DNA of 22,015 bases from a virus (Duplodnaviria > Heunggongvirae > Uroviricota > Caudoviricetes). The stretch lies in the IMG/VR virus record IMGVR_UViG_3300028797_000113, one strand, 5' to 3'. The position numbers and the translations under genes were made by a program. Under the pieces are notes generated by a model. That model saw only the letters and a program-made list of their open reading frames with translations. It made no database searches and was not told the origin of the DNA. The stretch's first letter is position 1, and every line of letters begins with the position of its first letter. This document shows, one piece after another, positions 680-6,337 of this stretch.

Positions 680-709
680 TTTACAATAACATTTCATTAT
701 TTATATAAT
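680..709 (+). promoter_or_regulatory. Putative sigma70/sigmaA promoter
   Basis: TTTACA (680-685), 18-nt spacer, TATAAT (704-709). Confidence 0.45.
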
Positions 710-802
710 TCTCTTTTTTGCTTCTTTTTTCTCTTTTGCCATTTTCCAAGAAAAATTTTTTCTTTTTTTTGCCTTTTTTTCGGGTGCTATTTTTCGGGTG
801 GG

Positions 803-830
803 TTGAGTTTTGCAAACAGTCTGCTATTGT
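803..830 (+). promoter_or_regulatory. Putative extended -10 promoter upstream of the structured tract
   Basis: TTGAGT (803-808), 16-nt spacer, TG-n-TATTGT (822-830). Confidence 0.3.
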
Positions 831-1043
831 GGAATTGCAAGTTGATGACGCGGACATCACTTGAGATAACTATAATTCCGCGAGAAAGGTTGTGATTTTA
901 TTCGATAGTACGTTTTTAATAATCTGAAACTCTATATATTCCCCGCCGTGTGCGTTATAACGCCACATTGGGACACGCAAGCCGTAGCGATAGCGTCAAA
1001 GCCGTGAGCGTGCTATAGGGTGGATAAATTACATACAGTCATC

Positions 1044-1603
1044 ATCCGTGTGTGTGTATCGGTTGCCAATGTTAGCCACAAACGATAGATAGCACGTCAA
1101 AAAAACGGGCTTCGTTCCCGAACGTGCGGAAAGATATGAGGTACAACACTATGACAACGATTACAGAATTACTCAACGTATGGGCAACATTGGACAATGC
1201 ACAGAAAGACAAGGCTATGAGCATACTCAACGCTATGTCTAACGAAAAGACCGCAAAGGTCGAAGATAACACGCTGGTAGAGAACATCTTCGCTAATATG
1301 CCGAAGTTTAAGAAGAACGCGAAGCGTTTATTCCTTACAGAGCAGACACACCGCTATTACGGCATCCATAAAGCGCTTGTTGCTTTAGGCGCAGAGTGGA
1401 TTAAGAAAGAAGACAGCGAGTACGAGTGCGGTTATTGGCAGTTTAAAGATACCGCGACTTGCGAAGACGCTTATAAGAAGCAGTGGGCATACGCTAACGG
1501 ACAGAACGAACAGAACAAGGTCTATGACTTCGTAATTGGCGCGTTCTAAACACACATTTAGGTAACTTCGGCTAACATTGGCACACGATATAAGCACACG
1601 GAT
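1044..1603. repeat. 34-nt imperfect inverted repeat (long-range stem) flanking the 132-aa ORF
   Basis: 1064-1077 TGCCAATGTTAGCC / 1570-1583 GGCTAACATTGGCA (14 bp perfect), plus 1057-1061/1586-1590 and 1044-1052/1595-1603 (9 bp perfect). Confidence 0.9.
1151..1549 (+). CDS. Hypothetical protein (132 aa) embedded in the structured tract; ALGAEW...YW segment reminiscent of DUF5710-like small domains
   Basis: GAGGT RBS at 1138-1142 before ATG 1151; normal protein-like composition. Domain resemblance is weak. Confidence 0.8.
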   Translation: MTTITELLNVWATLDNAQKDKAMSILNAMSNEKTAKVEDNTLVENIFANMPKFKKNAKRLFLTEQTHRYYGIHKALVALGAEWIKKEDSEYECGYWQFKDTATCEDAYKKQWAYANGQNEQNKVYDFVIGAF

Positions 1604-2800
1604 AGTGCAAGAATTAAAACCGCTTAGGTTAGACGGCTTATATGAACGTCACTCAAGGCGCACGTTAAGTGGCAACCCATCTTTAAGATGTCCATACGCA
1701 GTAGCGTGGTTGTGGATAATTCTCACACATAGACACGATATGCACAAGTCGAGTTGTTGCGAATGAGCGCACAACAAATGCTTGGAACAGATTTAGCGAC
1801 AAAACGTATCTTGGCGGAGTAGCATTGGTGCATAAAACCCTTGTCTGTTCAATAGTGGGGACACGACAGAGTGTAAAGACAACGTGTATAGCGTGTTGTG
1901 GGACAAGATGCCTAACATTAGTGAATGAGTATTTCGTGAACCGCATTTATCACGGGAAAGACGGTAAGTTGTCGGACTGAACAAGTTTGCGGGACTTGAA
2001 CCCACGTGGCAACCCTCAAGAAGTGTGTGCGTACTTCGACTGAACGAAAGAGTTAGTCAGTTTGGGCTTGGACAAGTAGGTTATGCATAAGTGAGCATCG
2101 TGGGCAAATAGTGTATGTGTTTGGGTGGCATACACTCATATTGGGACTGTCGACTTTGACACGTCGCCGACTTCTGTTCGGCGTAGTCCGTGGGTAACCT
2201 TTGGTTACGGCTATCCGTACCATTGGCACTCATTTAGAACCATAGGACAAGCGTGTACTTACGACTATCTATAAACAAGCGTGCAAGGATCACGCGTTGA
2301 TAGGTGGCAGTTCGTGGTGTGAGAACGACAAGCAGGAAGTCGTGGGGTGCAGAATAGTGCGCTTTACTCACACCACACAAGATACCAAAAACTTCAAGGT
2401 GCGTGTGATGATGTGTTGCGTCATAACGTACACATCATTATTCCCCTTGAGCGTCACTCACGCCAATGAAAAAACGACGATAAAAGTGTGGAGCGTGAGC
2501 CGCTATAAACCATAGGTGCAACTTACCATTAGCAATAATGGTTTCCGGCACAAGGGGCAGTTGGAGTAGGTGCTGTCGAAAAAATTGGTGGACTATGCCG
2601 ACCTTAACAGGCATAAGACAGTACACGAAAGTGTTGGTGCTGACCACATTAGCAACTGTTATCGGGTGCAACTCCCGATGGTAGCATTTCAGAAACGTCT
2701 AATAGAGCAAAGTGACTATGATAACACGTAGTTGCGTGGTCGCTTTCGCCGTAGACGTGCAACAACGGAAACGAACAAACGACGGAAAGGGGGTGTCGCT

Positions 2801-2860
2801 ATGATACCGCAGACAACTTGGGCAGACATTATGGATGCATATAACAATACCGACAAATAA
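2801..2860 (+). CDS. Putative 19-aa micro-protein (MIPQTTWADIMDAYNNTDK)
   Basis: GAAAGGGGGT RBS directly upstream; first ORF of the array. Confidence 0.45.
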   Translation: MIPQTTWADIMDAYNNTDK

Positions 2861-2887
2861 CGCAAATGCGTTGGAAAGGAAACGAAA

Positions 2888-3217
2888 ATGAAATACGTAA
2901 TCACGCAGGACTACCATAGCAACTATGTTGCAATAGACAAGAACGGAAACGCATACGTACACCGTCAAGGCACTATGTGTTATAGAGAACCGAAAATGAA
3001 GTGGTTTAACACACTTGAAGAAGCAAGGGAATTTGCAAACAAGGTGGCAGACCATCCACTTTGGGAACGCTTATATAGTCACGGCATAGACATATGTGAA
3101 GCGATAATTACACGTCACGTTGACGAATACGGAAATCGTTATACAACAGTTAACGCAGGCAAAATCATTTCCAGCGTGCCTGTAAAGAAATCGGATTATA
3201 GCAAATACTGTTGGTAA
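2888..3217 (+). CDS. Hypothetical phage protein (109 aa)
   Basis: GGAAAGGA RBS; contains the FNTLEEA motif. Confidence 0.85.
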   Translation: MKYVITQDYHSNYVAIDKNGNAYVHRQGTMCYREPKMKWFNTLEEAREFANKVADHPLWERLYSHGIDICEAIITRHVDEYGNRYTTVNAGKIISSVPVKKSDYSKYCW

Positions 3218-5084: not shown

Positions 5085-5279
5085 ATGCCACTACAAAAAC
5101 CCGTTGCGAGATTTGTATTCGGTTCTTTTGAATATCGCGTGTGTTATTCCGTGTACGAGAACGACGGAAAGTTTGAAGTCCAATGGCACACCGACGACGA
5201 AGGCGGTTGTTTTGGAAAGCCGTTCGACACTTTAAACGACGCATATATGGCGATTCTTAATCGCTTCAGAACAATATAA
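5085..5279 (+). CDS. Hypothetical protein (64 aa)
   Basis: AAAGGAAGTGA RBS; FDTLNDA motif. Confidence 0.8.
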   Translation: MPLQKPVARFVFGSFEYRVCYSVYENDGKFEVQWHTDDEGGCFGKPFDTLNDAYMAILNRFRTI

Positions 5280-5448: not shown

Positions 5449-5793
5449 ATGAAATCCAAAAAAATTTACACGCTTAACTTGACTATCGAAGAACATTGGA
5501 CACAAGACGAAGAAACGGAAGGCGTTGACATTAACGACTATGTTCGCGGTGTGTTTACATCTCTTGACAAGGCAATAGACGGCGCAAATTCAGTAATGGA
5601 AAGCGACGAGGATGATACAAAGGGAATCTTCATAATGGAATACGATACGGATAAAGTATCGTCGGGAAGATGTGTTGTGGGCTGGCTTAACGAAAACGGA
5701 AAGTTTTGGAAGTATTTTGAAGTAAAAGACGAAAAGCACTTTCTTTATAACCCAGACGGCAGTCCGTATTGTTCATACAAAAAGGAAGATTAA
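5449..5793 (+). CDS. Hypothetical acidic phage protein (114 aa)
   Basis: GGGAGG RBS before ATG 5449; GVFTSLDKA motif. Confidence 0.85.
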   Translation: MKSKKIYTLNLTIEEHWTQDEETEGVDINDYVRGVFTSLDKAIDGANSVMESDEDDTKGIFIMEYDTDKVSSGRCVVGWLNENGKFWKYFEVKDEKHFLYNPDGSPYCSYKKED

Positions 5794-5806
5794 GGAGGAA
5801 ACGGGA

Positions 5807-5968
5807 ATGCGTAACGAAAAAAAGAAAACGATTAAAGGCTTTAGAAAACAACTGAATACGATTAAGAGAAACTATATGTCAACTGGCGATCCGGAATACG
5901 CTATGCAGATGTCCGCTATTCAGGGCGTGATGTATGGGGCGTTCGAGCCGACAAGGCATTTTAAGTAA
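5807..5968 (+). CDS. Hypothetical basic protein (53 aa)
   Basis: Not in the track; TAAGGAGG RBS, MRNEKKKTIKGFRKQLNTIKR... Confidence 0.75.
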   Translation: MRNEKKKTIKGFRKQLNTIKRNYMSTGDPEYAMQMSAIQGVMYGAFEPTRHFK

Positions 5969-5989: not shown

Positions 5990-6337
5990 ATGAATATTTA
6001 TGCGTATCAAGAAAAAAGTAACGGACGCGGAATGATTCACAACAAAATGCCGAATTTATGTTTCGGCTTTCATTATCTTCACGGAAAACTTGAAGACATG
6101 AACGGTTGTGACCTTTTTGGGATTCGCAAAAAAGACGAAGAAAAGCTAACCAAACGCAAAAAGGGTTGCGAAAGAGTAACAGTCATATTCCCTGACGGAA
6201 ATAAAACAGATGCAGACTTTTATTTTTGGACGCCAAAATATCAGGTGCATATTAAAGGTCTGGTTGTATTGCCAGACGATAATGACGCGGTGGAATATGC
6301 TACGGACTGCTATTACGCAGATGCAGCGGACATATAA
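5990..6337 (+). CDS. Hypothetical phage protein (115 aa)
   Basis: AGGAGG RBS. Confidence 0.85.
   Translation: MNIYAYQEKSNGRGMIHNKMPNLCFGFHYLHGKLEDMNGCDLFGIRKKDEEKLTKRKKGCERVTVIFPDGNKTDADFYFWTPKYQVHIKGLVVLPDDNDAVEYATDCYYADAADI

Follow-up and report, generated by a model that had tools for sequence, protein, structure and literature searches.

What is encoded by the roughly 1.2 kb of DNA at the head of the early genes of an uncultured phage, in which no gene can be read? The stretch of 22,015 nucleotides (nt) analysed here, hereinafter the window, corresponds to bases 95340-117354 of a 129,668-bp IMG/VR virus record (IMGVR_UViG_3300028797_000113) that is rated complete. An initial annotation, made from the letters alone, had proposed that the early operon is headed, at window positions 945-2758, by a structured RNA of very large size, possibly undescribed, or else by a structured leader. 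Homology, compensatory base pairs and the negative comparisons with Rfam support this overall reading. On balance, and with modest confidence, we propose that ~945-2758 on the plus strand is a member of an unannotated family of giant RNAs, which would be processed from the early transcript and act in trans. The unit contains four parts: a leader, a duplex of 30-35 bp that loops out a small open reading frame (ORF), a body of ~0.9 kb that varies between subtypes, and a conserved 3' four-way junction followed by a hairpin. The proposed unit 945-2758 stands, with the addition that the small ORF at 1151-1549 sits inside the structure. All coordinates are those of the window and all features of the element lie on the plus strand.

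The DNA downstream of the small ORF has no coding potential. Past the small-ORF stop codon (1549), no plausible gene is met until the ATG of a micro-ORF at 2801, the first start codon that a ribosome-binding site (RBS) precedes; the next gene begins at 2888. The longest plus-strand ORF between 1549 and 2801 encodes only 72 amino acids (aa). TAA, TAG and TGA are each present in all six frames of 1550-2800, so no recoding of a single stop codon opens a frame, and a recoded or broken gene is ruled out. Translated searches of the gap with proteins from relatives found nothing. Thus, the claim that 1550-2760 is free of RBS-led ORFs is borne out.

Nine diverged lineages of uncultured SPbeta-related phages repeat this layout; in each of them, a gene for a protein of 113-137 aa is followed by a gap without a called gene. 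Specifically, each homologue of the small ORF with a readable locus has a gap of 0.8-1.6 kb downstream that holds no called gene. The gap measures 1336-1338 nt in the lineage of the window, 1267-1268, 1329, 1333, 1351-1352, about 1300-1600, 959 and 775 nt elsewhere, and 1409 nt in the ninth lineage (L120:1654-3062). In relatives with available DNA the gap occupies the same position and spans 959-1610 nt, similar to the 1338 nt of the window. In base composition the gaps are alike, the plus strand having more G than C and more A than T, and collinear blastn matches of 65-92% identity link them into a network. A profile of the relatives, searched with nhmmer, places the gap of the window in register at 1993-2145 (E = 2e-4) and 2487-2691 (E = 1.7e-13). 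Judged by these alignments, the gaps of the nine lineages are collinear homologues. The search for homologous loci that the initial annotation had called for thus returns nine lineages, and their compensatory pairs are well above column-shuffled controls.

The small ORF is enclosed by a long-range duplex, in which a 5' arm (1038-1078) pairs with a 3' arm (1569-1609). The duplex of the window contains 35 pairs, with a predicted energy of -56 kcal/mol on the plus strand versus -48.4 kcal/mol on the minus strand, and repeat tools independently found a 34-nt inverted repeat (1044-1077 / 1570-1603) at the same place. In every lineage, the arms join sequence 50-113 nt upstream of the small-ORF ATG to sequence 20-65 nt past its stop through 30-35 pairs; the duplex is present in all eight lineages tested and, in addition, in the ninth. 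RNAalifold on the eight lineages gives 29 consensus pairs, 21 of which have changed on both sides, and the only conserved sequence among the eight is the central core, UAUCGG in the 5' arm and CGAUA in the 3' arm. G-U pairs account for 27 of the 252 duplex pairs, and the plus-strand duplex is the more stable one in seven of the eight lineages. Because the arms covary, contain G-U pairs and prefer the plus strand, the comparison favours a helix of RNA over a protein-binding site in the DNA. In this structure the coding sequence of the small ORF is a loop of ~490 nt. The duplex has the form of an RNase III processing stem, namely a near-continuous helix of at least 20 bp built from flanking sequences, here with 30-35 covarying pairs in eight lineages.

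The 5' leader (945-1037) is predicted to pair with 1610-1665, just beyond the 3' arm. Together, the predicted pairing of 946-1129 with 1550-1665 amounts to -85 kcal/mol (z = -5.9 versus shuffles), which makes the left boundary at 945 a reasonable one. In relatives, 47 pairs connect the leader with sequence past the 3' arm, and 20 of them show compensatory changes. The leader alignment also shows that 948-961 is the site at which relatives have a hairpin with a conserved loop motif, GUGUGAUAAC.

The central multi-helix body (1610-2501) belongs to a divergent subtype. When folded alone, all helices listed in the initial annotation form as described: within the body, three-way junctions at 2144-2189 and 2314-2376 and a long hairpin at 2394-2450 (-26.5 kcal/mol); further downstream, stems with a GCAA loop at 2525-2542 and a GAAA loop at 2623-2634, and a compound hairpin at 2695-2758. 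The minimum free energy (MFE) of the whole 1250-nt stretch has a z of -2.6 on the plus strand versus -0.16 on the minus strand relative to dinucleotide shuffles, so that the folding score proposed as a check is negative on the plus strand only. In 200-nt windows of the plus strand, local z ranges from -1.4 to -4.7 across 2201-2800. A repeat search found no direct repeats or iterons within 1550-2790.

Comparative support for a folded body comes from the other subtypes. For six sequences of one subtype, representing about four independent lineages and 1010 alignment columns, RNAalifold gives -228 kcal/mol versus -148 ± 9 for column shuffles (z about -8.6) and -198 for the reverse strand; compensatory changes occur in 79 of the 188 pairs, compared with 36 ± 6 in shuffles. 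For a second subtype, represented by the pair L031/L025 (55% identical), the values are -669 versus -567 ± 16 (z = -6.3), again with the plus strand better. A structure derived without the lineage of the window leaves 61% of its positions paired when transferred to the window, compared with 37-51% (about 42%) in controls in which the partners were slid by 1-3 columns. A motif at 1991-2019 is weakly common to other subtypes, and R2, one of two covariance models (R1 and R2) of the first subtype, has a match at 1991-2053 (E = 0.015 in a 1.4-kb search). Because R1 and R2 find neither the window nor the second subtype significantly, the body falls into at least three diverged subtypes.

The 3' domain (2502-2686) folds into a tRNA-like cloverleaf with a four-way junction and is common to all lineages with a full-length gap. 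In the RNAalifold structure, an acceptor-like stem is formed by GCUAU (2502-2506) and GUAGC (2681-2685). A D-arm-like helix contains the GCAA hairpin (2525-2542) and the conserved UUCCGGCACA (2543-2552); an anticodon-arm-like helix (2558-2563 / 2653-2658) carries inserted hairpins at 2594-2615, 2623-2634 and 2635-2646; and a T-arm (2660-2680), a 7-bp hairpin with a 7-nt loop, adjoins the 3' strand of the acceptor-like stem. In an RNAalifold analysis of nine sequences, the acceptor-like stem and the T-arm covary. The acceptor-like pairing occurs in four forms (CUAU/GUAG, CCCU/GGGG, CCUG/CAGG and CCAGA/UUUGG) and the T-stem varies too, while the T-loop in several lineages is the canonical UUCGAUU, UUCGACU or UUCAACU of tRNA. 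Unconstrained MFE folding of the 3' domain alone gives one four-way junction topology in eight sequences. The order of the arms is that of tRNA, namely acceptor-like, D-like (with a conserved UUCCGG), anticodon-like and T, and the T-arm stacks on the acceptor-like stem. The 3' domain of the window matches L032/L037 by blastn with 77% identity over about 150 nt. The shortest form of the domain is 93 nt; that of the window reaches 185 nt because of the inserted hairpins, which include the GCAA and GAAA stems. The initial annotation had named the two GNRA-capped stems of this region; the cloverleaf topology had gone unnoticed.

The 3' domain is tRNA-shaped, yet it is not a tRNA, because its acceptor-like stem has 4-5 pairs, it has no 7-nt anticodon loop, no CCA lies in register and no tRNA or tmRNA model matches it. 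Specifically, where a tRNA has a 7-bp acceptor stem and a 7-nt anticodon loop, the domain has a stem of 4-5 bp and a third-arm loop of at least 17 nt. ARAGORN finds no tRNA or transfer-messenger RNA (tmRNA) in the window or in any gap, and the Rfam models of tRNA and tmRNA have no match in the window or its relatives even at E up to 5-10.

A conserved terminal hairpin (2712-2743; -27.2 kcal/mol) follows the 3' domain, lies inside the compound hairpin 2695-2758 and is succeeded by the tail UUUCGCCGU. By eye, in the alignment, the stem differs between lineages while the loop and the tail are similar. The terminator scan reports no intrinsic terminator at 2712-2743, which is too U-poor to score as one. 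The right boundary of about 2758 fits the position of this hairpin, after which the flank (2784-2860) brings an RBS, GGAAAGGGGG (2784-2793), and the micro-ORF (2801-2860); this flank is outside the RNA and marks its 3' limit. Homology to other lineages by blastn resumes at about 2775-2800. The micro-ORF has 19 codons (MIPQTTWADIMDAYNNTDK) and a strong RBS. Its conservation across lineages, with mostly third-position changes, makes it probable that the early genes begin with this genuine, if tiny, gene.

The element represents a new family of large ornate phage RNAs that is not GOLLD, ROOL, tRNA, tmRNA or an intron. No Rfam family reaches its gathering score in the window or in seven related loci, which leaves the proposed novelty unrefuted. 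At E up to 10 over 700-3100, only chance-level matches are found, to the Tymovirus tRNA-like structure (E = 0.11), which reflects the T-arm only, and to a snoRNA. The GOLLD (RF01998) and ROOL (RF03087) models match neither the window, including 700-3100 at E up to 10, nor the seven related loci. The Intron_gpI, Intron_gpII and group-II-D1D4 models have no match in the window or its relatives. No cis-regulatory Rfam family matches the window. The family is absent from Rfam 15, no published description was found, and at the DNA level 900-2900 matches no GenBank phage. Among the structured RNAs of IMG/VR, a published survey describes only elements of 29-151 nt (PMC10690425).

GOLLD is a large RNA of phages and prophages, conserved in its 3' region and less so in its 5' region, and it is often found beside tRNAs or covalently linked to them (PMC5737381; bioRxiv 10.1101/2024.12.08.627333). 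The element resembles GOLLD in organisation only: it is phage-borne, its 3' module is common to all lineages, its body varies by subtype and a tRNA shape is built in. In contrast to GOLLD (about 800 nt or more), it has ~1.2 kb of non-coding sequence, or ~1.8 kb with the leader and the ORF loop; its tRNA-like part is not a real tRNA; its ORF loop is closed by a duplex of 30-35 bp; and it is always coupled to one family of small proteins. ROOL is rumen-derived, phage-associated and ornate, is found near tRNAs and is of unknown function (PMC5737381). The element shares with it the rumen link, the association with phages, the ornate fold and the proximity to tRNA-type structure, whereas ROOL averages 581 nt and has no identified partner protein. 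If it is one molecule, the element is longer than the reported lengths of GOLLD and ROOL, in agreement with the size that had been claimed for it.

Other known systems resemble single parts of the element. Like the stems and spacer tRNAs of rRNA operons, it combines a long duplex of flanking sequences and a tRNA-shaped possible cleavage mark in one long transcript; unlike them, its duplex encloses a protein-coding segment rather than a structured RNA, it has no similarity to rRNA, and its cleavage is a prediction. The stack of acceptor-like stem and T-arm with a 7-nt T-loop at a 3' end recalls MALAT1 mascRNA, the tRNA-like 3' ends of plant viruses, the tRNA-like domain of tmRNA and bacterial Y RNA modules. 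It differs from these in having a full four-way junction, an acceptor-like stem of 4-5 bp, no 7-nt anticodon loop and insertions of up to about 90 nt. The processive antiterminator RNAs HK022 put and EAR, short two-stem RNAs just past a promoter that act by modifying RNA polymerase, are far smaller.

In rRNA operons, the classical substrates of RNase III are duplexes of at least 20 bp formed by the sequences on either side of an excised segment, and the 12-bp stack of acceptor and T stems is the unit recognised by RNase P and likewise by RNase Z and the CCA-adding enzyme. Because the duplex and the acceptor/T stack of the element resemble these substrates, we infer a model for its transcription, its two cleavages, its action in trans and its biological role. 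A single early transcript would contain the leader, the small ORF, the large RNA, the tRNA-like domain and the early genes, and would be matured like an rRNA operon. Host RNase III would cut the long duplex, which would free the mRNA of the small protein and give the large RNA its 5' end. The 3' end would be set by RNase P and/or RNase Z through recognition of the stacked acceptor-like and T helices (11-12 bp). The released RNA, about 0.9-1.2 kb, would act in trans early in infection, either in a ribonucleoprotein that includes the co-encoded protein or, in the manner of GOLLD and ROOL, as an assembly of RNA alone.

A more specific form of this proposal, which we put forward tentatively and at somewhat less than an even chance, is a discrete, stable, multi-domain RNA of ~1.2 kb that owes its maturation by RNase III and RNase P to a tRNA mimic within it, has a dedicated small protein, and serves as a ribonucleoprotein, ribozyme or self-assembling cage for host takeover or counter-defence. 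If true, it would be the longest structured RNA of bacteria or phages besides rRNA and group II introns. Few bacterial or phage RNAs longer than 500 nt have elaborate conserved folds, namely RNase P, group II introns, OLE, GOLLD and ROOL, and each of these revealed unusual biochemistry or architecture. The family would widen the size range of large structured RNAs. Its place in SPbeta-like phages is a hypervariable region of host takeover, in which roles in counter-defence are to be expected, and genome annotation misses the family altogether. The element also offers testable handles: it has an obligate partner gene, its duplex predicts an RNase III site, and its tRNA-shaped end predicts recognition by RNase P, RNase Z or the CCA enzyme.

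Several observations weigh against a processed RNA that acts in trans. The element is directly upstream of the early genes on the same strand, and sigma-70 promoter and terminator scans of 900-2900 assign no usable promoter or terminator. The acceptor-like stem has only 4-5 bp and CCA is absent in register. Local z in 200-nt windows of the plus strand is about 0 (-0.6 to +1.6) across 1501-2000; therefore, single-sequence folding gives no support to the 5' third of the gap. RNAalifold itself selects for covariation, and the best alignment contains about four independent lineages. The covariance models R1 and R2, both built on a single subtype, give no significant match to the window, L031 or L025, and switching the filters off did not bring out the body of the window either. 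The subtype of the window has only relatives of 94-97% identity, in which 27 variable pairs comprise two compensatory ones, 17 kept through G-U and eight broken. Because its relatives are so close and its compensatory pairs so few, direct comparative support for 1610-2501 is limited; the only ties between the central ~900 nt of the window and the family are position, length, weak profile matches and the flanking modules.

Because the element is upstream of the early genes, co-oriented with them and separated from them by no terminator, the main alternative to a trans-acting RNA is a cis-acting leader or intercistronic RNA. Such an RNA would never be released and would control the small ORF and the early genes through stability, closure of the ORF, antitermination or the timing of translation. 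Consistent with this alternative, no terminator-like site separates the element from the micro-ORF, a strong RBS stands immediately past the terminal hairpin, and the duplex encloses the small ORF together with its RBS region. However, known antiterminator and leader RNAs are about 70-300 nt, compared with 1.2 kb here, a tRNA-shaped domain and a covarying multi-domain body are unnecessary for such roles, and the related phages L026 and L029 dispense with the whole module. We regard the cis-acting explanation as unlikely, with a real chance of being right.

Another possibility is that only the flanking modules (the duplex, and the tRNA-like domain with its hairpin) are functional and that the ~900 nt between them in the window are a fast-evolving spacer or a remnant without a fold. 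The failure of one-subtype models to find the body of the window, the local z of about 0 over 1501-2000 and the fact that blastn between subtypes finds the ends only are all expected of a spacer. Most lineages, in contrast, keep the gap at a length of about 1.27-1.41 kb, conserved structure across the body is strong in the other two subtypes, and the gap has diverged (3-4%) no more than the flanking ORF. Moreover, z in the window falls to -4.7 at 2301-2500, and the transferred structure is paired there above controls. A mere spacer is thus distinctly improbable.

An element that acts as DNA, such as a replication origin, a site of recombination or transposition at inverted repeats, or an attachment site with the 3' part of a host tRNA, would account for the inverted repeat (1044-1077 / 1570-1603) that flanks the ORF; temperate phages often carry a tRNA 3' fragment at their attachment site, and SPbeta-like phages are temperate. 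We give this explanation very little weight: the arms differ almost wholly between lineages and stay complementary, the opposite of what a protein-recognised DNA site would show, and their G-U pairs favour a plus-strand RNA; the acceptor-like 5' strand lies 60-180 nt upstream of the covarying 3' strand, which an attachment-site fragment cannot explain; 1550-2790 has no iterons, which are found upstream at 172-264; and the element is present in a single copy in the genome. It is just as improbable that the element is a known RNA in degenerate form, whether the remains of a tRNA array, a tmRNA, or an intron of group I or II whose peripheral loop carries an ORF, since the T-arm-like hairpin and cloverleaf, the weak Tymovirus match and an ORF looped out of a helix in a large structured RNA, as is typical of introns with a homing endonuclease or maturase gene, are set against the negative ARAGORN and Rfam searches, a single T-arm per element, the lack of a detected intron core, an ORF-free leader upstream in place of exons, and a small protein in which Pfam and PHROG detect no endonuclease, maturase or reverse-transcriptase domain.

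The small ORF (1151-1549) encodes 132 aa from the ATG at 1151 or 141 aa from a GTG at 1124. Homologues of 22-34% identity are present in all lineages in public assemblies, with invariant positions I-H, G, W-x-F and Q-x(3)-A. The protein family is rare (32 clusters among 1.84 billion representatives), and two protein libraries contain no relative of the protein of the window between 29% and 92% identity. GenBank phages have no translated match to it, and scans of IMG/VR and JGI with the protein or its alignment recovered the L025 contig alone. The protein has no significant Pfam match and no PHROG match; weak DUF5710/HARP Pfam matches in three of 15 family members are leads, not evidence. An AlphaFold2 model (predicted local distance difference test score, pLDDT, 73) shows a C-terminal alpha/beta domain; for the fold of the protein, Foldseek finds nothing at E <= 0.001. 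The best matches by VIA-align are RRM or ferredoxin-like domains with Z of 5-5.9, within the range of common arrangements. The RRM-like neighbours of the model and the DUF5710/HARP matches are hints, no more, of nucleic-acid binding. One homologue from a representative library (P0024, 345 aa) is a fusion in which an N-terminal extension of 212 residues, without a Pfam match, precedes the part that corresponds to the small protein.

Close sister phages do without the RNA. L026 and L029, in which the neighbouring 864-aa protein is 86-90% identical, lack both the small ORF and the RNA and carry instead unrelated ORFs of 246 and 212 aa on the reverse strand, between the ~300-aa gene and the early genes. 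Judged from these loci, the module of RNA and small ORF is therefore accessory cargo in a hypervariable hot spot. The RNA of L120 is a mosaic, the middle of which is 77% identical to the L025 subtype and the 3' part 68% identical to the L016/L018 subtype, which suggests that recombination shuffles RNA domains between phages. A scan of viral contigs and GTDB genomes for the motif pair GCTATAAAC..TTCCGGCACA returned 5 + 71 stretches, about the number that we estimate for chance, and zero of them match the family profiles.

The genome that carries the element is organised in two divergent blocks. The minus-strand late block encodes a T4-type large terminase, a 3623-aa protein and tail fibre proteins, while the plus-strand early/middle block encodes a polymerase of the DNA polymerase III alpha type and a primase-helicase. 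The element is located just past the divergent junction of the two blocks, at the head of the early genes. The large terminase has 42% identity to the terminase of Bacillus phage SPbeta/phi3T, genome sizes are similar to those of SPbeta and phi3T, and phage genes carry Shine-Dalgarno sequences. For these reasons the source is an uncultured SPbeta-like phage, most likely with a host among the Bacillota, which fits the earlier guess of a Firmicutes phage. Only uncultured metagenome contigs carry the RNA family, some of them from ruminant gut, an origin suggested for related contigs in public metagenome assemblies by the sample names.

Upstream of the element, 134-940 is a second ORF-free stretch of about 0.8-1 kb and 27-37% GC, situated between the divergent late and early blocks. 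An inverted repeat (139-171 / 253-285) brackets five spaced repeats of ~15-18 nt (172-264). The stretch also contains ATCTGGTCTTATTTT in three copies (399-491), CTTTTTTTCGGGTG in two (773-800), long tracts of T and, at 680-709, a sigma-70-like promoter close to consensus. The region is partly conserved, at 63-66%, in another lineage, and from its sequence it looks like an origin or regulatory region.

Two further loci of the genome lie apart from the element. Outside the window, at L023:3463-6072 (genome 3463-6072), three tRNA genes (5168-5240, 5780-5850 and 6001-6072) follow a protein of 500 aa that combines DUF2828, DUF7788 and von Willebrand A (vWA) domains. A vWA domain beside RNA genes recalls Ro60 and Y RNAs, a parallel that we presume to be a lead only; a sequence search of the PDB did not find a likeness of this DUF2828/vWA protein to Ro60. 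On the minus strand at L020:13017-13053 (genome about 88017-88053), between the terminase gene and the adjoining gene, the Rfam abiF RNA motif is matched with 39.6 bits against a gathering score of 37 bits. A weaker abiF match (28 bits) is located among the early genes of the relative L033 (3473-3509).

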